34,999 bases of DNA from Promethearchaeota archaeon (GTDB lineage: Archaea; Asgardarchaeota; Lokiarchaeia; Sigyniarchaeales; SOKP01): the NCBI GenBank assembly GCA_008080735.1, contig SHMW01000042.1:1-34999 (forward strand). The letters are read 5' to 3'. Positions 9,579 to 33,958 of this stretch are shown in pieces. Made by a program: the position numbers and the translations under genes. The notes beneath the pieces were generated by a model, which saw nothing but the letters and a program-made list of their open reading frames with translations, was not told the DNA's origin and searched no databases. The number at the start of each line of letters is the position of its first letter. Position 1 is the first letter of the stretch.

Positions 9579-10837
9579 TTCCTATCTTTTATTTTTTCTT
9601 GATTGATTTGTATAAAATTTATGATAAATTCAGTAAAATCCAGAATTTTTATCGATGAAATATCTTCAAAATCATTTTGTAAGCATTTGAAATGTAATTC
9701 GCATTTTGGGCATGTCGACACCATAATATTACTCACCTCTTTTGCCTCTAAAAGCCGTTTATATCTTAGAGCTTTTGACCTTTCATTACAATTCATCCAG
9801 CTACTTACACCACAACATAAGGAATTCGCTTTGTTATGTTTCATCTCATTAAACTTATGTCCTACCTTTTCTAATTGATAGAATATTTCTCTAATTTTTT
9901 CCATAATATTATTTTGTTTTGGAAGAAATCTACTAAATCTACAAGGATCATGAAATGTAAATATTAATTTCTTATCTAATCCTTTTTTTAGTTTAAAAGA
10001 AATAATTCCCTCTTCCCACTTTTCATAAAGATACTCTATTATGTGTTTTATTTCGAACCTTTCATTAAAATCTTTAAATAATTTAGGATAATCAATTTTA
10101 AAAGTTCTATATCCCTCTGCGCACGATGTGATGATTGTTGAGACGCCTGCTCTCTCAAAATTATCGACATTTTTTTTAGCTAATTCTATGAATTCCTCCA
10201 CTTTCCCTTGACCCCAATATAAATCATGACCACAACAAAATTCATCCTCAAGTACAACAATAGGATCTTTTTCTATCTTGGAAATCATTTTTAGACTATT
10301 CATGGGAATAGCATCCATCTCATCGAATTCAAATTTAAAATACGGAAGACATCCCACATGGAATAATAGGTCCCCCGATTCAGAAATCTTGATTTCTTTC
10401 GGAATCCATCTTAGATCTCTCTTAGGTTGAATTTCATAGTTTGCAGAAATTTCGGAAATCATAGTATAAATGCCTTTATGAGCAATTTTTTGATCTGGGT
10501 TATTCTGATACTGATTTATCATTTGATATTTCGCAACTCTTACGAGGTCGGCAAAATTTATATCTTCGGGACAATCTTTCATACAACTATTACACATCAA
10601 ACAATCCCAAAGCACTCCACTCTCCAAAATTTTACCCTCAAAACCTTCGAGAATTTTTTGAATTATTCTACTTGGCCTAAAATCTTGGACTTTGCTTATT
10701 TGGCAAACTCCAGTACATCGAGCGCATTGATAACATCTTTTCAGTAATTCTCTTAAATCTTGTTGATGTAAACTGCGTAGATCTTCTTCATTATAATTTT
10801 CTTTTCTGTATGGTGCTTTTTTTTTTGTTTCTGTCAT
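9575..10837 (-). CDS. HdrD-like Fe-S oxidoreductase (HdrC-type 2[4Fe-4S] domain plus two CCG domains)
   Basis: CYQCARCTGVC and CLMCNSCMKDCP; CCG domains FHVGC...EFCCGH...SCAEG and FHDPC...CCG...TCPKC. Confidence 0.85.
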   Translation of the reverse strand: MTETKKKAPYRKENYNEEDLRSLHQQDLRELLKRCYQCARCTGVCQISKVQDFRPSRIIQKILEGFEGKILESGVLWDCLMCNSCMKDCPEDINFADLVRVAKYQMINQYQNNPDQKIAHKGIYTMISEISANYEIQPKRDLRWIPKEIKISESGDLLFHVGCLPYFKFEFDEMDAIPMNSLKMISKIEKDPIVVLEDEFCCGHDLYWGQGKVEEFIELAKKNVDNFERAGVSTIITSCAEGYRTFKIDYPKLFKDFNERFEIKHIIEYLYEKWEEGIISFKLKKGLDKKLIFTFHDPCRFSRFLPKQNNIMEKIREIFYQLEKVGHKFNEMKHNKANSLCCGVSSWMNCNERSKALRYKRLLEAKEVSNIMVSTCPKCELHFKCLQNDFEDISSIKILDFTEFIINFIQINQEKIKDRK

Positions 10838-11961
10838 AATTTAAGGTTAATATTTAAATTCTTCATGAACTTTTCTTTCCTTTCAATTTTCTTTTTAGAG
10901 AATGCAGAGAGGATATTTTGAATTCTGAATATCTCATCATCAGAAATCCCTCTGAGTTTAATTAGTCCCGCATCTCTTACTTTTTGGAATAATAGTTTTC
11001 CTTTCTCCGTTCTAATAATAACAGTAGTATATTTCTTGGGGGAACCTAATCCTCCAAAAGAAATATCTGCATAAATATTAGTAAAATCATCACAAGCATT
11101 ACATGCAACACGCATATAATCTTTCATGTAATTAAATGGAATATGCATTTCTTTATGTGGTTCTTGATTATCACCCATCTGGAAAATCAAATCCTCTTTC
11201 ATGTTGATTTTCTTTATCTTTTCGAATTCAATATTAAAATCCTTTTCGAATTTGTCTAATTGGGATCTATCAAAAAGGAAGTTTTCATAACAAAATAGGC
11301 CAAGACAAATCTTAACATTTTCTGATGGAGTGACTCCCAAACTTTGCATACAGCGAATACTATATATTTGACAAGGAGTTCCGACAAGAGCTAATTTATT
11401 GAATTTATAATTTTTTAATTCTGGAATTGTATGGGTGTATGTCGAAAATTTTTGAAGTTCGATCAACTGTGGAGAAATATTTAATTGAGTGCCCGAAGAA
11501 TCTATGAGCTCTTCCTTATTTTTAGCATAAATAGCTTCCCGTGAAAATGGTGCCTCGGTCTTTGAGACGATAGAACCATCGATCTCGTCGATTTCTAATA
11601 GATAATTAATAATCGTATTAACTATTCCTCCATCAGTTCCATTTTTTAAAAAGTCTTTATCATTGGATTGACATGAATAAATTTCGAGATAATTTCCTAT
11701 AGGCATTGAAGAAAAGCCTTCAAATAAATATATTTTATTTAATTCATCGTCTAGAACACGTGTTTGAGGGCAAATATAATAACAAATACCACACTCAAGG
11801 CAATCATCTTCATTTATATATACTGGAGGAGAATATGGGTCAACAAAATTTATAATATCATACTCTGCGGAACTACAAAAACTAACACAGCCTCCACATT
11901 GTTGACATATACCTCTCTCGTGTACATCTTTAATTAAATCTTCAAAAGTTTTTGTTGCCAT
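10834..11961 (-). CDS. FrhB/FdhB/FpoF-family coenzyme F420-binding subunit with an N-terminal ferredoxin
   Basis: CQQCGGCVSFC and CLECGICYYICP; GTDGGIV, VGTPCQ, LGLFCYENF, CNACDDFTNIYADISFGGLGS. Confidence 0.88.
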   Translation of the reverse strand: MATKTFEDLIKDVHERGICQQCGGCVSFCSSAEYDIINFVDPYSPPVYINEDDCLECGICYYICPQTRVLDDELNKIYLFEGFSSMPIGNYLEIYSCQSNDKDFLKNGTDGGIVNTIINYLLEIDEIDGSIVSKTEAPFSREAIYAKNKEELIDSSGTQLNISPQLIELQKFSTYTHTIPELKNYKFNKLALVGTPCQIYSIRCMQSLGVTPSENVKICLGLFCYENFLFDRSQLDKFEKDFNIEFEKIKKINMKEDLIFQMGDNQEPHKEMHIPFNYMKDYMRVACNACDDFTNIYADISFGGLGSPKKYTTVIIRTEKGKLLFQKVRDAGLIKLRGISDDEIFRIQNILSAFSKKKIERKEKFMKNLNINLKL

Positions 11962-11971
11962 AATTTTGATT

Positions 11972-13474
11972 TCATTTATTTTCGGTTAATTTAATAGGTT
12001 TACACTTATTTCTCTTTATTCCAGCTATCTTTTCTACCAAAAATCTACCTGGTTTTACCTCTGTTAAATCTTTCGATTCAATTAAACCATCTTTTATAGC
12101 GGCTTGATATAGTTCTTCTCCTTTTTCGTTTCTAGTTATTACAGAAGACCATCCTGCTTGAGAACCTATAGATCCTACTGAAATGTCGGCAAAATCTGAT
12201 GTAAGATCTTCACAAAAATGGCAAGTTTCGCGAGCATAGGCTTGTATTTCTTTTAAAGGAACATCCAATTCTTCCCCCGATTTTAGATTAATTATGAATT
12301 TACCTTTATCAATATTCATTTTCACTAGATCTTCTATATTCTTATCGAATTTTTCCTCAACTAATTTGATAATATTATCATAAGAAAAGGATTCCATACA
12401 AAACAAACCAATCTTATATTTAATGTTTGTAAAAAATGGATAGCCGCTTGGAAATAAAGATCCTTTCTCTATTGCTTTCATCATACAAGGAACACCAACT
12501 ATTGCAATGCCCTCATATTGCTTTGATTGATCTAATATTGATAATGAAGCACAGTTTGCATATTTTGTACCTGCTGTCTTGTATAAATCCTTAAGATTAT
12601 TCACAATAACCGCTTTCGGATTCCAAAGGTCCTCTGAGTGTTTCACAGCAATTATTGCATCTACTACTTTATTTTTTAATAGATATTCTAAAAGTGTGGT
12701 TACTATACCACCATCTTGACAAGACTTTTTAATTTGATCTATATTAGTTGTTCCAGAATAGGTATTTAGATATGTCCCTATTTTTTCGGAAAATGTTAAT
12801 GATTCATTTAATTGTGATTTAAATTCACTTACCCTTTCGATAGGAAAGGATCGTGGACAGACTGTGAAACACAATCCACATTTAATACATAGCTCTTCAT
12901 CGACTTTTAACTCATCTGAATTTACGACAATTGCATTTACAGGGCATATAGCGGAACACCAACCACAATTACAGCATAGACCAGAATTATATATTATGGA
13001 TACAGGTTCAAAAATTCTCTCTACAAAATCTGCGTCTAATTTGTTAGCTTTATATTTAAAAATATGTTCCTCTTGCTCGACTTCTTTTTCTACCCCCTTA
13101 ATTTTTTTTTTCACTAATTTTATTTTAACTTCATTAGACTCCTCTATGTACCCTTGTTCTTTCAAATAAATAATATCTCTAAGTAAATACATAGGGTTTA
13201 AATTTGAGAATTTTCTAACAAGATCGTCTAATTTTAGAACTTCTTTGATTTTTCTTAGATCTTGTAAAAATAATTGACGTTCAGTTTCAGCATCAATCAT
13301 CGCATCAAGGATATGATAAAATTCTTGCTCAGTATATTTGCCTATCTCTAAGATTTCTTTCTTAGCTTCAAACAACGCTCTGATTTGGAAATTCTTGGTG
13401 GCTAAATAAGTTGCCTCCAAAACATCTTTTGGGGAATAATTTTTAAATTCAGTTTTTTGTATTAATTGATCCAT
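11972..13474 (-). CDS. FrhB-family F420-binding subunit with a ferredoxin domain and a ~150-aa N-terminal helical/wHTH-like extension
   Basis: CCNCGWCSAICP, CIKCGLCFTVCP, QDGGIVT, AGTKY, VGVPCM, IGLFCMESF, CHFCEDLTSDFADISVGSIGS. Confidence 0.88.
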   Translation of the reverse strand: MDQLIQKTEFKNYSPKDVLEATYLATKNFQIRALFEAKKEILEIGKYTEQEFYHILDAMIDAETERQLFLQDLRKIKEVLKLDDLVRKFSNLNPMYLLRDIIYLKEQGYIEESNEVKIKLVKKKIKGVEKEVEQEEHIFKYKANKLDADFVERIFEPVSIIYNSGLCCNCGWCSAICPVNAIVVNSDELKVDEELCIKCGLCFTVCPRSFPIERVSEFKSQLNESLTFSEKIGTYLNTYSGTTNIDQIKKSCQDGGIVTTLLEYLLKNKVVDAIIAVKHSEDLWNPKAVIVNNLKDLYKTAGTKYANCASLSILDQSKQYEGIAIVGVPCMMKAIEKGSLFPSGYPFFTNIKYKIGLFCMESFSYDNIIKLVEEKFDKNIEDLVKMNIDKGKFIINLKSGEELDVPLKEIQAYARETCHFCEDLTSDFADISVGSIGSQAGWSSVITRNEKGEELYQAAIKDGLIESKDLTEVKPGRFLVEKIAGIKRNKCKPIKLTENK

Positions 13475-13512
13475 CTTTTTTCCTATTTAATTTCTTTTAA
13501 AAATTTTAAATT

Positions 13513-13582
13513 TCCTCCTCCCCTTGCGAGGGTGTCAACTTATAACTATTATTTTTTTATAAGCTTCATTCAATTTGGAGGA
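13513..13582 (-). ncRNA. Eukaryote-like (Lokiarchaeal) SECIS element in the mvhD(Sec) 3' UTR
   Basis: Minus strand reads AUGA-AGCUUAUAA-AAAAAUAAUAG-UUAUAAGUU-GA-C (core 13534-13569). It has an AUGA/GA tandem G.A core, a 9-bp stem with one G-U pair and an A-rich apical loop. A possible lower helix is UCCUCC (13577-13582) pairing with GGAGGA (13513-13518). It sits directly downstream of two genes with in-frame UGA codons at Cys positions. Confidence 0.82.
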
Positions 13583-14016
13583 TTCGGTGATTCTATTTCT
13601 TGTAGATTAAGTTTGATCGGGTTATGTCCTTCCATTTGAACCTTTTCAAAAGCATCTTCAACACTTTTAACAAATTTCTCTGATTCTGCTGAGCTTAACA
13701 TATACATATTTACTCGCATATCCCCGAGACCTCTTCGACTTAAAATCCTATTAGCTAGGTCCACATGTTTTTGAGCATTAAAATTTCCCGCTTTGAACTG
13801 ACATTCATGTGGGCGTCAACCCACAACCATCACACCGTCACAACCGCTTTTAATGGCGTAGAGAATATGCTTTACATCTATTCTTCCCGTGCATCTCACT
13901 TTAATAATCTTTACTGAGGGTGTATATTTCATGCGAGACACTCCCGCTAAATCCGCAGCGGAGTATCCTCATTTGAGACAAGCAAAACAGATTATATAGT
14001 AATTATTTTCTGTCAT
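13570..14016 (-). CDS. mvhD: MvhD/VhuD selenoprotein, 148 aa, Sec16 and Sec67
   Basis: Manual translation from ATG 14016: MTENNYYIICFACLK-U-GYSAADLAGVSRMKYTPSVKIIKVRCTGRIDVKHILYAIKSGCDGVMVVG-U-RPHECQFKAGNFNAQKHVDLANR...PNPPN*. The TGA codons at 13969-13971 and 13816-13818 align with CCNW-C-SY and G-C-HIGDC of the Cys paralogue at 6004-6468. A GGAGGT Shine-Dalgarno lies at 14022-14027. Confidence 0.9.
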
Positions 14017-14018
14017 TT

Positions 14019-15980
14019 TTAACCTCCAGACAAAATTCCTTCAATTTCTGCATAAATTTGATTATCTCTAAAATATCGTATATCAATTGCTTGTGTTGGA
14101 CAGCAAGTAGCGCAAATTCCTCAACCATCACAGTTGATTTCATCTACGGTTGCTTTTACACCTTCTTCTAATTTGATTGCACCCTTAGGACATTCTTTAA
14201 CACATCTATGACAGATAATACATCTGTCCTCATCTACTTCTGCAACAATTAATTCAAGATCAATTTGCCCGGCAGATGTCATTTCAGCTACCTTACTTGC
14301 TGCCGCTCTAGACTGAGAAACTGAGTAGGCAATATCTTTTGGTCCTTGAGCAAATCCTGCAATAAAGATTCCCTTTGTGTTGGTTTCTTGGGGCATTAAG
14401 CCGAAGTGAGATTCAGTCAAGAAGCCATTTTTATCTACATCCAAGTTCAACACATCGGCTATTTGCGCTGTACCTTTTGAAGGTAAGGCGGCGGTTGATA
14501 AGATAACTAAATCCGCATTAATATTGATGATTTCATCGGTCAAAGATGAATAAACTCGTAGTTTAATGTCCTTTGTATCATTGTTTTCTTCAAATTCTCC
14601 CACTTTCCCTCTTATAAGTCTTATATTTGATTCTTTCGCGTGTTGATAATATTCTTCAAATCCTTTTTCGTTGGTTCTCATATCGATGTAGCATATTGTT
14701 ATTTCTGCGTCAGGGAACTCTTCTTTTAATAATTTCGCATTTTTTAACGCAAGCATACAGCAGACTCCGCTGCAATAGGTTCTCTCTTTATCCCGACTGC
14801 CAACACACTGGATGAATACAATTTCTTTTGGTTCTTTTTCATCTGACACACGTCTCACATGACCGCCTAATGGGCCATTTGGAGCAAGCATCCGTTCCAG
14901 TTGAGCTTGGTTGATTACATTTTCAAATTTGCCATATCCATATTCATCATATGGTTCATAGATATCCCACCCAGTCGCGATGATAATCGATCCTACCTCG
15001 ATTTGTTTTTCTTCTGGAATTTGGGAAAAATCGATGGCATCGAGTTCACATTCTTCCACACAACTAAAGCACTCAACGCATGAATTTCGATCAATATCAT
15101 AAAGAAAAGGAACAGCTTGACCAAACGCTATATCTATAGCTTTTCTTGCACCCAAATATTCATCAAAATAATTTGGAATATATATGGGACATACTTCCGT
15201 ACAGGCACCACAACCATTACAATCGTCGGTTATATATCTCGGTTTCTTTTCAATGCAGATCTCGTAATTTCCAACGTAGCCCTTAACTTCTTTAACTTCT
15301 GCATAAGACATTATCTCAATATTTTCATTTCTGCTGACTTCCAACATCTTTGGACCGCAGATTCAGATCGCACAATCATCAGTAGGAAAGGTTCTGTCTA
15401 ATTGAGCCATCCGCCCACCAATCGTCGAATTCTTTTCTACGAGATACACCTTTATACCTTGATTCGCTAAATCTAATGCGGCATTCATCCCTGCTATACC
15501 AGCCCCAATAACTAATGTAGATTTTTTCACGGGAACTGTTTTAATAGGGACTGTTTCTAAAAGTCTTGCACGCTCTAAACCACTGAGTACTAATTTTTTT
15601 GCTTTCTCGGTCGCTTGGTTAGGATCATCTGTACACCAGCTACAATGCTCTCGTACGTTCACCATTTGGTAATAATAGGGATCTAACCCCGCTTTCGAAA
15701 GAGTGTCTCTATAAATGGGTTCATGGGTTACTGGTGTTCAAGCGGAAGCAACGACTCTTGTGATATTTTTTTCTTGGATATCATTCATTATTTCAGTTTG
15801 ACCACTTTCAGTGCAAAGAAAAGAATGGGTTTTGGAAACGACAACATCATCGAATTGCTTTGCAAAATTTACTAATTCTCCGCAATCTACTTTACTTTTA
15901 ATGTTTATGCCTCACTGACACGCATAGAAGGATATTCTTTCGTTTTTTTGTTCATTCCGTTGCATAATATTTTTTAACAT
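14019..15980 (-). CDS. hdrA: Heterodisulfide reductase subunit A selenoprotein, ~653 aa, four Sec (U23, U81, U206, U620 counted from ATG 15980)
   Basis: One frame joins ORF-track fragments 15363-15665 and 14121-15347. In-frame TGA codons lie at 15912-15914 (YACQ-U-GINI), 15738-15740 (VVASA-U-TPVTHEP), 15363-15365 (TFPTDDCAI-U-ICGPKM) and 14121-14123 (NCDG-U-GICATCCP). The frame ends ...EGILSGG-TAA at 14019. The length matches canonical HdrA. Alternative starts are GTG 15992 and ATG 15965. Confidence 0.9.
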
Positions 15981-15993
15981 ACTTTTTTTCACA

Positions 15994-15999
15994 TCACCT
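15994..15999 (-). promoter_or_regulatory. Shine-Dalgarno-like AGGTGA upstream of hdrA(Sec)
   Basis: Minus strand TAAGGTGATGTGAAAAAAAGTATG; archaeal GGTGA-type ribosome-binding site 13 nt before ATG 15980. Confidence 0.4.
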
Positions 16000-16329
16000 T
16001 ACTAGCAATTAAAATTTCAATTAGGATAATATATGTATAGTTTGTGATCAAATTCTATAAAAATATTTATATTCGTTTTGAGTTTTATCTATTTCTCTCC
16101 TAATTGATCTCGTTATTAACAATATTTATGAATTTGGTCTTTAAAATGTTTTCTATTTATTTAGATAGCTAAACAAGATATCATTCATGATTGGATCCGA
16201 CAGATTTTACCTAATTCAGAAAATAGAAAATGTTTAATAGTTGGAAAGGATAGTTTTTTAAATTAGGATGATCACAATTAATGATAATCAGAATTCGAAT
16301 TATCGGATCTGATAATCCTAGAAGAATTC

Positions 16330-17928
16330 ATGTCAAATATAGAATTTAATCCTATAGAGGTTTATAATAAACGGCAAGAATTAGGACTCTCAACTGCAGT
16401 TCAATTATTAATCCAGATTATAAATTCCCAAGAAGAGCTTTCCACAAGAAAAGAAGCGATTAAAATAATCGGTTCAATAGAAAAGATACCTGATAATGCT
16501 AAGGAAGTCTGTTTTCAAACATTGGAGAATGTAATAATTTCTGAAAAAACCATTGAATTAAAATGTGAAGCTGCAAGATCTATGGGAAAAATTAAATTGA
16601 AAAAGTCCCTTGAACCCTTAAAATGGATTTTGGAGAATTCTTCGGATGCACTTGATGCTGAAATGGAAAAAACGGTACTAAAAGCCATTCATAGTATCAG
16701 ATTTGAAAAACCAGAGATAGATTTATTTATAAAATACTTGGATTCCGATTATAAAGTTACCAGAGAATATGTGAGCTATGAATTATTAAACCTCCCTCCT
16801 AATGAGGCAATTAACATGCTTTTAGAATCATTTAATACTGAAATTTCTAATTCATGTAAGATTGAGGTTGTAAAATTAATAGGAAAATATATCTCGAGTC
16901 TAAATGTAAGCTATAATGATTCTAATTATCTTAAGATAAAGCATCCAGCAATTTTAGAAAGTATCTCAAGCCATAAAAAGGATTTTACTTCTTTGCTTTC
17001 TCTTATTGATAAAAAAGATAAGGAGCTAATTAAAAGGATTTTAACAATATTTCGGTTATTAGGCAATGAGATAAATTCAGAATTAATTGAATTAGTCAAA
17101 GATGAGGAGTTCATCGCGAAGGAAAATGCGATATATTTGATAGGGAAGTTAAAGATCAAGAGCGCGATGGGCTTATTATTGGAAAACATAGATAATATGT
17201 ATAGTGAAATCAGTATAGCCTCAATCAAGGCTTTAGCTGACATTGGAGATGCCTCAATTATCCCAGAATTGTTAAAGTCTCTAAATGTAGAAGATATTGA
17301 TTTCGAATATATTGATATGGATATGAAGTGGTATATCATTGACACGATTAAGCAAATTTATCTCCAAGATGAAAGTATTAGCTACGAAACTTTATTATCC
17401 CAATTAGACCACCCCAATGAAATTCTCAAAGAATCTATTGCCTATATTTTAGGAGAACTGGGTAATAAGCAGTTTGTGGAACCATTACTCGCATTATTGA
17501 AAAGAAAGGAAAATATTGATGTGAAAAAAAATGCGATCATCGCTTTAGGGAAAATTGGGGGATATGAGGCAATTGAACCATTGATAACCTATGCAGAAAA
17601 CCCAAAAGTGTATTGGTTGCTTAAAAAAATCGTGATTGACGCGGTGCTTAATATTTACAACGATAACTGGTATCAAGTTAATTCTAATGAGGAGATAAGG
17701 AGACTTCTAATAAAAAATAGAGCGCGATTGAGTGATTATCTAAAGGAACATAATAATGAATGTTATAAGATCAAACTAGGAATAATCAAATTTCTCGAAA
17801 AATTTGGTGATAAAGCTGCCATCGACGCGCTTTTTGCAAATGTAAATGATTTTCATCGAATTGTACAGATTTCTGCTCAAAACGCAATAAAATCCATCAG
17901 TGAACGATTAGAAGAACCTCAAAACTAA
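16330..17928 (+). CDS. HEAT-repeat (PBS-lyase HEAT-like) alpha-solenoid protein
   Basis: Repeated units such as EAARSMGKIK, ENAIYLIGKLK, ASIKALADIGD, ESIAYILGELGN, NAIIALGKIGG. Confidence 0.85.
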   Translation: MSNIEFNPIEVYNKRQELGLSTAVQLLIQIINSQEELSTRKEAIKIIGSIEKIPDNAKEVCFQTLENVIISEKTIELKCEAARSMGKIKLKKSLEPLKWILENSSDALDAEMEKTVLKAIHSIRFEKPEIDLFIKYLDSDYKVTREYVSYELLNLPPNEAINMLLESFNTEISNSCKIEVVKLIGKYISSLNVSYNDSNYLKIKHPAILESISSHKKDFTSLLSLIDKKDKELIKRILTIFRLLGNEINSELIELVKDEEFIAKENAIYLIGKLKIKSAMGLLLENIDNMYSEISIASIKALADIGDASIIPELLKSLNVEDIDFEYIDMDMKWYIIDTIKQIYLQDESISYETLLSQLDHPNEILKESIAYILGELGNKQFVEPLLALLKRKENIDVKKNAIIALGKIGGYEAIEPLITYAENPKVYWLLKKIVIDAVLNIYNDNWYQVNSNEEIRRLLIKNRARLSDYLKEHNNECYKIKLGIIKFLEKFGDKAAIDALFANVNDFHRIVQISAQNAIKSISERLEEPQN

Positions 17929-32485: not shown

Positions 32486-33958
32486 TCAAAATCCTAATCC
32501 GCTAAATAAGCGTCTTGTTAGATAATCAGTTTCCGATAAACTATTCAAAATTTTATCATTCTCCTTTAGTGGAATTTTTAAACCTTGAACTTCTAAAATA
32601 TTAATTACAGAAATATTTTTGAAAGTGGTTATAATACCATCCTTTTCTTCATAAGACAAATTATAATCACTAGAAAGATTTCCATGAACTCGGGCACCTC
32701 CCTTTACCTTGTACCTATTCCCTCTATCATCCTCTACAATTCGAGAATCTCCTAACCTAATCTCTACATAACCTTGTCCTCTTCTACGTAATTTTTCAAA
32801 ATCTCTTGTTCTAAAATCAATATTGATTCTTTTCTGAAGCGGTTCTTTTGTGAGTTTTTCTTCTGGTGGTGATTGGATTTTGATATCCATATATTTTTGA
32901 TATTCATTTATTTCCTTAAACCATCTCTTCACACTCTCAGATATTAATTCAATTGACCCATTTCCTCTTTTGAATTCTGCTTTATGGCCGTCTCTTATTG
33001 CGGCTTTAAGATTTGTTTCATGATAAGCATCTTTCAAGATTTTTCCAGTTGAATTCAAATAAAGCGCATGATATGCAGATGCGCAACATAAATATGCTAA
33101 ATCCAAAATATCTTGCAAATCTTGTTGTACATCAATAATTCTAATTTCAACCCTGTTCCTTGAGGGAGAATCATCTTTATCCTCACCAATATTCGAAGAT
33201 GGCCCTCGAGGGCTAATATCCACTAGTCTCGCTCCCCGTGAGTTTGCTATAACACTCTTTTCAAATTCATCTTCGCCTGATCCAATTCTAAGATTATAAC
33301 GTAGCCTTCCATAATATTGCATTTGAACCAAAGCAGGTCCTTTCTCAGGTTGTTTAAACTTCGCATATCCGTTTGGTTTTAAAACATTGCTTTTCACACA
33401 CCTATTACTGGCTATTCCTGTTTCTTCTCCTTGATAAATAGGAGAATTAGCAGATATTCCAATAATTTCTGGTAAATAGTTCCACAAATAATTGTATACT
33501 GCCCTTAATTCTTTTGGTTTCATCACATAATGTTTTTCATGGATTGATACGTTAATATGTGTTCCTACTATTGGATTTGGATTAGATTGAATTGGATGGA
33601 GGCTTTGGGCAAATATTTTTACTCCAAGTTTAGATGCTGCATCGGCTAATAATTTTCTTCCTATTTTGGTTGCTTCTTCCAATTCAGCAGGAGGCAGAGG
33701 TAAAGTGACATATTCTATTTGAGACGGGGAGGGCTCTGGGTCTAAACTTCTGATTTTCAATTTCACCGATTCTAATAGGTCTTCGTTTCTACTTAAGAAT
33801 TCAGCAACAGTTTCCATTAAATCATCTGCTACCTCAACTAATGTACCGTCTTTATTTATTATGAAAAACTCCTCCTCAATTCCACATAAAACCTCGTAAT
33901 CATTAAACGGAAACTCATCAATATCCTGCGTTTTTTCGTAGAACAACATATAATTCAT
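32486..33958 (-). CDS. Glutamate-cysteine ligase family 2 (GCS2/YbdK-like) carboxylate-amine ligase with a C-terminal extension
   Basis: GIEEEFFII, QIEYVT, GTHINVS, LPEIIGISANSPIYQG..TGIASNR, RVEIRIIDVQ. Confidence 0.82.
   Translation of the reverse strand: MNYMLFYEKTQDIDEFPFNDYEVLCGIEEEFFIINKDGTLVEVADDLMETVAEFLSRNEDLLESVKLKIRSLDPEPSPSQIEYVTLPLPPAELEEATKIGRKLLADAASKLGVKIFAQSLHPIQSNPNPIVGTHINVSIHEKHYVMKPKELRAVYNYLWNYLPEIIGISANSPIYQGEETGIASNRCVKSNVLKPNGYAKFKQPEKGPALVQMQYYGRLRYNLRIGSGEDEFEKSVIANSRGARLVDISPRGPSSNIGEDKDDSPSRNRVEIRIIDVQQDLQDILDLAYLCCASAYHALYLNSTGKILKDAYHETNLKAAIRDGHKAEFKRGNGSIELISESVKRWFKEINEYQKYMDIKIQSPPEEKLTKEPLQKRINIDFRTRDFEKLRRRGQGYVEIRLGDSRIVEDDRGNRYKVKGGARVHGNLSSDYNLSYEEKDGIITTFKNISVINILEVQGLKIPLKENDKILNSLSETDYLTRRLFSGLGF

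Follow-up and report, generated by a model that had tools for sequence, protein, structure and literature searches.

A lokiSECIS element probably shared by six UGA codons of an archaeal hdrA–mvhD gene pair, and the covarying three-way junction that contains it

Introduction

Two neighbouring genes on a contig of a Promethearchaeota archaeon, homologues of hdrA and of mvhD (also vhuD), carry six in-frame UGA codons between them, and a hairpin resembling the SECIS elements of eukaryotes begins directly after the stop codon of the second. How can a single such element serve UGA codons in two cistrons, some of them more than two kilobases away, and how much of the surrounding RNA belongs to it? 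The first part of this question has a published background. Mariotti et al. 2016 (PMC4989117) defined the lokiSECIS as an AUGA, a 9-bp stem, an 11-nt loop with adenines first and G last (the G usually preceded by A) and a GA, rarely AA; they described HdrA-VhuD tandems with "only a single lokiSECIS ... downstream of the second gene", where the shared element serves up to six UGA over ~2 kb. Huang et al. 2024 (PMC11227280) confirmed the shared element in hundreds of Asgard MAGs under the name 'eSECIS-like type I'.

Here we analyse a stretch of 34,999 nucleotides from this contig (referred to as the window), for which an earlier note, made from the letters alone, had proposed long-range recoding from one SECIS and suggested that it might possess an extra structural arm. 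The genome is a metagenome-assembled draft of 4.1 Mb in 140 contigs, with 33.6% G+C, 93% complete and 7% contaminated.

Results

The hdrA–mvhD locus

The coding features of the locus are as follows.

14019..15980, minus strand: hdrA, 653 codons plus the stop TAA, translated with TGA as U
14021-14019, minus strand: stop codon TAA of hdrA
15914, 15740, 15365 and 14123, minus strand: first positions of the in-frame UGA (Sec) codons of hdrA, residues 23, 81, 206 and 620
13570..14016, minus strand: mvhD/vhuD, 148 codons plus the stop UGA (13572-13570), with its ATG at 14016
13971 and 13818, minus strand: first positions of the in-frame UGA (Sec) codons of mvhD, residues 16 and 67

The TAA and the ATG leave a gap of 2 nt between the two genes, as the earlier note had read. 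Measured to the AUGA core downstream, the UGA codons of hdrA lie at distances of 2345, 2171, 1796 and 554 nt, and those of mvhD at 402 and 249 nt. Both proteins have solved homologues. HdrA aligns over its full length with the HdrA chain 9sfi_A (660 bits), U206 at the canonical position being matched to an X that stands for Sec and U23, U81 and U620 to Cys; MvhD is a full-length homologue of the solved MvhD (121 bits), where U16 and U67 both align with X (Sec) in chain 9sfi_K. The domain content agrees with these names, with Fer4 and FAD/pyridine-nucleotide domains from Pfam in HdrA and a match to FlpD (PF02662, E 1.4e-40) in MvhD.

Selenocysteine machinery and genetic code

The earlier note had named the machinery for selenocysteine as something to check, and all five components, tRNA-Sec, EFSec, PSTK, SepSecS and SelD, are in the genome. 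SepSecS (491 bits; contig C15:58185-59486) and EFSec (244 bits; C15:64728-65648) lie on one contig; the PSTK homologue scores 179 bits over its full length, which is below the NCBIfam cut-off of 290 bits, and the SelD gene itself carries one in-frame TGA. The tRNA-Sec gene, located between SepSecS and EFSec (C15:60227-60370, minus strand; L032:228-371), was identified by eye among the GC-rich islands of that interval. It is 144 nt long including the encoded CCA, with UCA as its anticodon, stems of 9 bp (acceptor), 7 bp (D, with a 4-nt loop) and 4 bp (T), a long variable arm and a discriminator G. Two apparent insertions interrupt it, one of ~22 nt in the anticodon loop and another of ~29 nt in the T loop; Mariotti et al. 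(PMC4989117) reported an intron in the T loop alone. Because of its two introns, it was missed by the Rfam tRNA-Sec model and ARAGORN, which reported no tRNA-Sec in the genome, and likewise by two pattern scans. A 90-nt candidate on another contig (C1:11422-11511; L002:1501-1587) was rejected as a tRNA-Cys (GCA) with a 16-nt anticodon-loop intron; it scores 31 bits against the Rfam tRNA-Sec model and could be confused with tRNA-Sec. Among long open frames genome-wide, 17% stop at TGA; it is therefore an ordinary stop codon here, and the code is not reassigned.

The SECIS element

The element after mvhD consists of the following parts.

13513..13582, minus strand: complete SECIS three-way junction, from RNAfold and the covariance model
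13582-13577, minus strand: 5' strand of helix I, UCCUCC, within the last mvhD codons and paired with GGAGGA in the MFE fold
13566..13572, minus strand: bulged strand of the k-turn, with U13572 (-2b), G13571 (-1b), the bulge A-A-U at 13570-13568, G13567 and A13566
13569-13566, minus strand: AUGA core, starting at the base after the mvhD stop codon
13565-13557, minus strand: 5' strand of helix II, AGCUUAUAA, 9 bp with no mismatch
13556-13546, minus strand: apical loop, AAAAAUAAUAG, 11 nt with an A-rich start (AAAAA...AG)
13545-13537, minus strand: 3' strand of helix II, UUAUAAGUU
13537..13565, minus strand: helix II and apical loop together
13536-13535, minus strand: GA core, directly 3' of the stem and followed by CA
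13533..13536, minus strand: non-bulged strand of the k-turn, with G13536, A13535, C13534 (-1n) and A13533 (-2n)
13532-13520, minus strand: side hairpin, CCCUCGCAAGGGG, by homology CCCU-CGCA-AGGG
13518-13513, minus strand: 3' strand of helix I, GGAGGA

The hairpin 3' of mvhD is a lokiSECIS, in which every published defining feature that we looked for is present: the AUGA, the 9-bp stem, the 11-nt loop with its A-rich start and AG end, and the GA. It also shows traits of eukaryotic SECIS elements, with an AUGA/GA quartet between a lower and an upper helix and unpaired adenines in the loop. RNAfold gives a three-helix fold of -18.8 kcal/mol (z = -2.2) that includes the UCCUCC/GGAGGA helix, and together with the sequence it confirms the AUGA-stem-loop-stem-GA arrangement that had been described at 13513-13582; for the side hairpin, the program prefers the register CCUC-GCAA-GGGG.

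The element is entangled with the end of the gene that precedes it. The first 13 nt of the SECIS overlap the 3' end of the mvhD coding sequence, and the 5' strand of helix I and the C-stem of the k-turn together overlap its last five codons and stop codon. A spacer AAAU separates UCCUCC from the stop UGA at 13572-13570, of which the first two bases, U13572 and G13571, are the -2b and -1b positions of the C-stem and the third is the first base of the bulge.

A probable single signal for six UGA codons

The covariance model of the three-way junction was built from 11 mvhD-type sequences. A scan of the window with filters off returned one match, covering 13509-13584 on the minus strand, with a score of 71.2 bits that is high partly by construction, since the window sequence is among the 11 seeds; the next best match (13.5 bits, E 0.2) lacks the core. 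Elements of the same genome that were not seeds are found by this model at E values from 3e-11 to 8e-6. A strict motif scan of the 4.1-Mb genome gave only about eight elements whose stem has 9 bp and whose loop has 11 or 12 nt, 7 of 8 starting 1-22 nt after a UGA-containing ORF of at least 60 aa. The remaining one, at C10:35021, has no UGA-containing ORF of 60 aa or more upstream. On the coding strand of the window the motif scan finds this element alone, the other motif match in the window being a relaxed AUGA...AA with an 8-bp stem at 17066 on the plus strand, outside the operon.

The earlier note had seen no second such element, and the further searches agree with it. The euryarchaeal pattern of a GAA_A bulge and three G/C pairs matches neither in 13400-16300 on the minus strand nor in the whole window, and Rfam, including SECIS_1 (RF00031), gives no relevant match in the whole window at the gathering threshold, nor in 13350-16150 even at E <= 10. 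When orthologous hdrA-mvhD loci in other Promethearchaeota MAGs are considered, all ten have exactly one element, placed after mvhD. The orthologous hdrA genes contain multiple UGA codons (up to 5) and always stop with TAA, and in three of these loci the mvhD stop is UAG at the same place.

The element directly 3' of mvhD is thus very probably the sole SECIS of a bicistronic hdrA-mvhD message, acting on six UGA codons in two cistrons out to a farthest distance of 2345 nt, and this much of the earlier proposal, which spoke of one eukaryote-like SECIS reaching to ~2.35 kb, is supported. The proposal had been offered as an inference; the sharing of one element is explicit in the very paper it cited ('up to six UGA codons ... 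~2 kb', PMC4989117) and is stated again in PMC11227280, so that the reading is correct but already known. Sec insertion at the UGA codons of hdrA, and its dependence on the SECIS next to mvhD, we infer from the absence of another detectable signal. Covariance model R1 is rich in sequence information and missed the divergent SECIS of a second pair of such genes, hdrA-vhuD on contig C13, which makes it conceivable that hdrA contains a signal of a very different kind.

This second pair (AUGA at 33825, minus strand; L028:454-546) has two UGA codons in hdrA and two in vhuD. Its SECIS, UUAUGA...GAAG with a side arm AUGG-AUGCC-CCAU, is not detected by R1 at E <= 1 and is a second subtype of the element. 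Elsewhere in the genome, a region of contig C10 (33498-35027, minus strand; L027) contains three SECIS within 1.5 kb, two of them after UGA-containing Prx-like ORFs, and two SECIS junctions missed by the strict scan were found at C87:7149-7227 (plus strand) and C49:17340-17416 (minus strand), with 53.8 and 47.6 bits.

A conserved and covarying three-way junction

In each of the eight strict lokiSECIS candidates of the genome a small G+C-rich hairpin follows 2-5 nt after the GA; a lower helix can be drawn around most of them, and the ten orthologous loci show a like pattern. Of the window's family, 131 genomes were sampled, and the junction model has several matches in each, about 780 in total; in 19 genomes that belong to the same order but to other families it has none. 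At the level of the phylum it matches 29 of 29 genomes of the window's family and gives weak matches in two other families.

To describe covariation, 99 matches were used, 90 of them distinct, in an alignment fitted to the structure of the model. The pairing counts are inflated by this fitting for helix I (90.4% paired over the 90 distinct elements, with compensatory changes at all 6 pairs, one position reading CG 41, AU 33 and UA 7 times), for helix II (94.6% paired in the 90 elements, compensatory changes at all 9 pairs) and for the side hairpin (78.4% paired, one C:G pair invariant in 89 of 89, two-sided changes at three of four pairs). The side hairpin rests on fewer compensatory changes than helix I because it varies little, its CC/GG being invariant. 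Taken together, the four helices have 89.9% of cells paired, compared to 37.6-53.4% when the partners are slid by 1-3 columns, and none of 500 shuffles reaches the observed covariation score, a statistic that overstates the significance because the sequences are related. The apical loop is 11 nt long in 87 of the 90 elements.

Folding the elements freely leads to the same picture. Helix I appears in the unconstrained MFE folds of 88 of 90 elements and a local side hairpin in those of 73, against 56 and 49 expected after shuffling of the flanks. The UCCUCC/GGAGGA helix of the earlier note appears in the MFE fold and has a homologous helix that covaries at all its pairs, and the GC hairpin at 13520-13532, which the note had suggested as an extra arm, is conserved and covaries in the 90 distinct elements. 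A rival pairing, of the 5' flank CCAUUG with CAAUGG in the side arm, is possible in three sequences (L034, L035 and L037); the complementarity is missing from most of the others, and we rejected it.

A similar architecture is found at a greater distance. In a different family of the phylum, a SECIS after an mvhD homologue (L149, G168:C6:185300-186600, at ~1094-1168) has an AUGA...AA core, a helix I (CUGCUGC/GCGGCAG) unrelated in sequence, and the same three-way arrangement with a side arm CCCCU-GCG-AGGGG.

The k-turn and the side hairpin

The consensus of the core is G[AAU]GA...GAC, with AAUGA in 79 of the 90 elements and a non-bulged strand of GAC in 83, AAC in 4 and GAU in 3. Below it, the -1b:-1n pair is G:C in 87, A:U in 2 and G:U in 1, and the -2b:-2n pair is AU in 38, UA in 13, GU in 8, GC in 4 and UG in 2, with 18 unpaired. 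These two pairs of the C-stem are the fairer test of covariation, since they are absent from the model. At the level of sequence and covariation, the core looks like a standard k-turn with a 3-nt bulge and a 2-bp C-stem.

Just below this C-stem, the side hairpin emerges from the non-bulged strand. Its loop is of the form NGCR (UGCA in 29 elements, UGCG in 17, CGCA in 10 and AGCA in 5), and the GC of the loop is present in 85 of 90. A GNRA register of the loop (GCAA/GCGA) is possible in 74 of 90; the NGCR register fits all subgroups. The extra hairpin is a genuine and conserved part of these elements, its CC/GG core being invariant and its loop of the NGCR type.

Downstream of the element

Two features follow the junction.

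13499..13503, minus strand: T5 tract, 10 nt after the junction, which may be an archaeal termination signal
11972..13474, minus strand: FrhB/FdhB-like gene of 500 aa (Pfam FrhB_FdhB_N, FrhB_FdhB_C and Fer4), starting 38 nt past helix I

Of 89 distinct elements, 49 have a run of at least five T in the 30 nt that follow, compared to 13% of random genomic 30-mers, an enrichment that is overstated as the related sequences are not independent. With the T5 tract at 13503-13499, this suggests that the transcript may end there. A frhB-like gene, 60-66% identical, also follows the SECIS at a gap of 25-55 nt in all ten orthologous loci. On the claim of the earlier note that the SECIS is internal to an operon, the evidence is divided: the conserved downstream gene speaks for it, and the T5 tract, if the transcript ends there, against.

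The region 10834-13474 of the window (minus strand) holds two successive FrhB/FdhB-like genes with ferredoxin domains, the first encoding 500 aa and the second 375 aa. The A/T-rich AAAUUUAAAAUUUUUAAAA (13499-13510, minus strand), located between the SECIS and the ATG at 13474, could serve both as an oligo-T terminator and as a TATA-like box of the frhB-like gene. The GGAGGAGG run was considered as the Shine-Dalgarno sequence of the downstream gene and ruled out, lying ~40 nt from the ATG, with the homologous strand covarying in helix I.

Discussion

Alternative explanations

The reading of one shared SECIS has to be weighed against the suggestion that the element serves mvhD alone, the UGA codons of hdrA being read through another signal or left undecoded, with HdrA truncated or the gene decaying. 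The first UGA of hdrA is 2.3 kb away in another cistron, the evidence that ties the element to hdrA is indirect, and our searches were not exhaustive, as the failure of R1 on the divergent subtype makes plain. However, the hdrA frame is intact over 653 codons, scores 660 bits against the solved protein and has every UGA at a Cys or Sec position; the orthologues in ten loci keep multiple UGA codons, the TAA stop and the single element; neither the eaSECIS pattern nor an Rfam match was found; and the two published studies (PMC4989117, PMC11227280) reach the shared-SECIS conclusion too. We regard service to mvhD alone as quite improbable. It is still less credible that the in-frame TGA codons are errors of sequencing or assembly, or belong to a reassigned code, with the hairpin a chance match. 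The fragmentary, partly contaminated state of the draft (140 contigs, 93% complete, 7% contaminated) gives some room for errors, but six independent TGA codons fall exactly on Cys or Sec positions, the same pattern recurs in ten other assemblies, TGA is a normal stop genome-wide and the Sec machinery is complete, so that this explanation is effectively refuted.

A different objection concerns the anatomy. On this view the SECIS is a minimal stem-loop, and helix I and the side hairpin are a neighbour outside it, either a 3'-end or terminator-associated structure or a regulator of the frhB-like gene. The oligo-T enrichment just past the junction and the conserved frhB-like gene 25-55 nt downstream would suit such a structure, and the published models, as far as their texts describe them, comprise a core, an upper stem, an internal loop and a lower stem only. 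Yet the same junction, with its CC/GG-NGCR hairpin, is found with the SECIS elements of unrelated selenoprotein genes at other loci of this genome (Prx-like genes and small UGA-containing ORFs), which indicates that the hairpin travels with the SECIS and not with frhB; it accompanies ~780 matches in 131 genomes; and the k-turn arm and the hairpin lie together inside helix I, whose 5' strand precedes the AUGA core. A separate terminator or regulator is accordingly an unlikely account, and we prefer to see the junction as part of the SECIS itself.

Proposed mechanism

If the junction is part of the shared SECIS, recoding might proceed as follows. The RNA would fold into the k-turn-based three-way junction while ribosomes are still upstream, and the junction would recruit EFSec carrying Sec-tRNA(Sec), directly or via an adaptor. 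From there it would be passed to a ribosome that pauses at any one of the six UGA codons in the two cistrons, 249-2345 nt upstream. The stop UGA of mvhD belongs to the C-stem of the k-turn, and a ribosome arriving there would already have unfolded the signal, so that UGA at this place would terminate. That a terminating ribosome must melt the signal follows from the overlap of the helix I 5' strand and the C-stem with the end of mvhD, and it is consistent with the published idea that stop codons adjoining the element escape recoding. The action on hdrA as well as mvhD, the route to the ribosome and any role of the side hairpin are presumptive parts of this scheme.

As to that role, we put forward tentatively, as a possibility we rate below even, that the Asgard SECIS is no simple hairpin of the eukaryotic kind but a k-turn built on a three-way junction, in which the side hairpin locks the kink by a tertiary contact or acts as a handle for a SECIS-binding factor, possibly EFSec. 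If true, this would explain how organisms that lack SBP2 can recode a large number of far-off UGA codons in more than one cistron, and the Asgard junction would be the ancestral state behind the internal loop of eukaryotic SECIS elements.

Significance

The interest of the shared SECIS, published since 2016, lies in how a single RNA signal can recode more than one stop codon, at distances of kilobases and beyond the end of a cistron. We extend the known lokiSECIS anatomy by three features: a lower helix that covaries, a C-stem of 2 bp that sets the AAU bulge at the standard 3 nt, and a side hairpin that is conserved. The definition is thereby sharpened to an element of ~70 nt with four helices, an AAU-bulge k-turn and a side hairpin conserved in sequence, for which the covariance model finds an instance in every sampled genome of the window's family. 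As the 5' strand of helix I is inside the coding sequence, this also guides where the boundaries of experimental constructs should be placed, and the side hairpin is a candidate recognition determinant in organisms where SBP2 was not found. The three-way-junction anatomy with its conserved side hairpin is a modest addition, which can be tested at the bench.

Comparison with known systems

The closest relatives are the HdrA-VhuD lokiSECIS elements (PMC4989117), which share the position directly after the VhuD/MvhD stop, the single element per gene pair and the use of stop codons, HdrA ending in UAA or UAG and VhuD being free to end in UGA. Nothing essential is different in the window element, which is another instance of the same arrangement. 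What we describe around the core goes beyond the published wording: in its text PMC4989117 describes the Asgard element as a stem-loop, and the texts of PMC11227280 and of the review PMC13188914 speak of two helices, an internal loop and "no highly conserved nucleotides" around the core. A full-text literature search for SECIS with "three-way junction" gave nothing relevant, and the texts cited here, their figures and supplements aside, do not mention this junction.

Euryarchaeal SECIS elements (Methanococcales, Methanopyrus) have in common with the window element the 3'-UTR location and the selenoprotein families HdrA and VhuD. A further shared trait is the GAC trinucleotide that follows the core, remarked on in PMC4989117 for the SECIS elements of VhuD, the euryarchaeal VhuD version reading AUGA...GAC/AAC. 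They differ in their GAA_A bulge and GC-rich upper stem, the GAA_A bulge and its three S-S pairs being absent from the window element.

The eukaryotic SECIS (RF00031) resembles it in the AUGA...GA core, the unpaired adenines that open the apical loop, the lower helix, the 3' location and the presumed action at a distance on several UGA codons. In contrast, helix II of the window element is shorter (9 bp), RF00031 gives no match at E <= 10, the 3' side of what would be the 'internal loop' is a structured hairpin, and two cistrons are probably served; no SBP2 is known in Asgard archaea (PMC4989117).

With the k-turn and k-junction motifs described by Lilley (PMC4005666, PMC10573300), the element shares tandem G.A/A.G pairs, a 3-nt bulge and a Watson-Crick -1b:-1n pair, and with the k-junction also a third helix that leaves the non-bulged strand. 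In the k-junction, which L7Ae does not fold, this third helix is placed directly opposite the bulge (PMC10573300), whereas in the window element two covarying base pairs (-1 and -2) come before the branch, and for this reason we keep the Asgard element apart from the k-junctions as a k-turn-like core with a side hairpin of its own.
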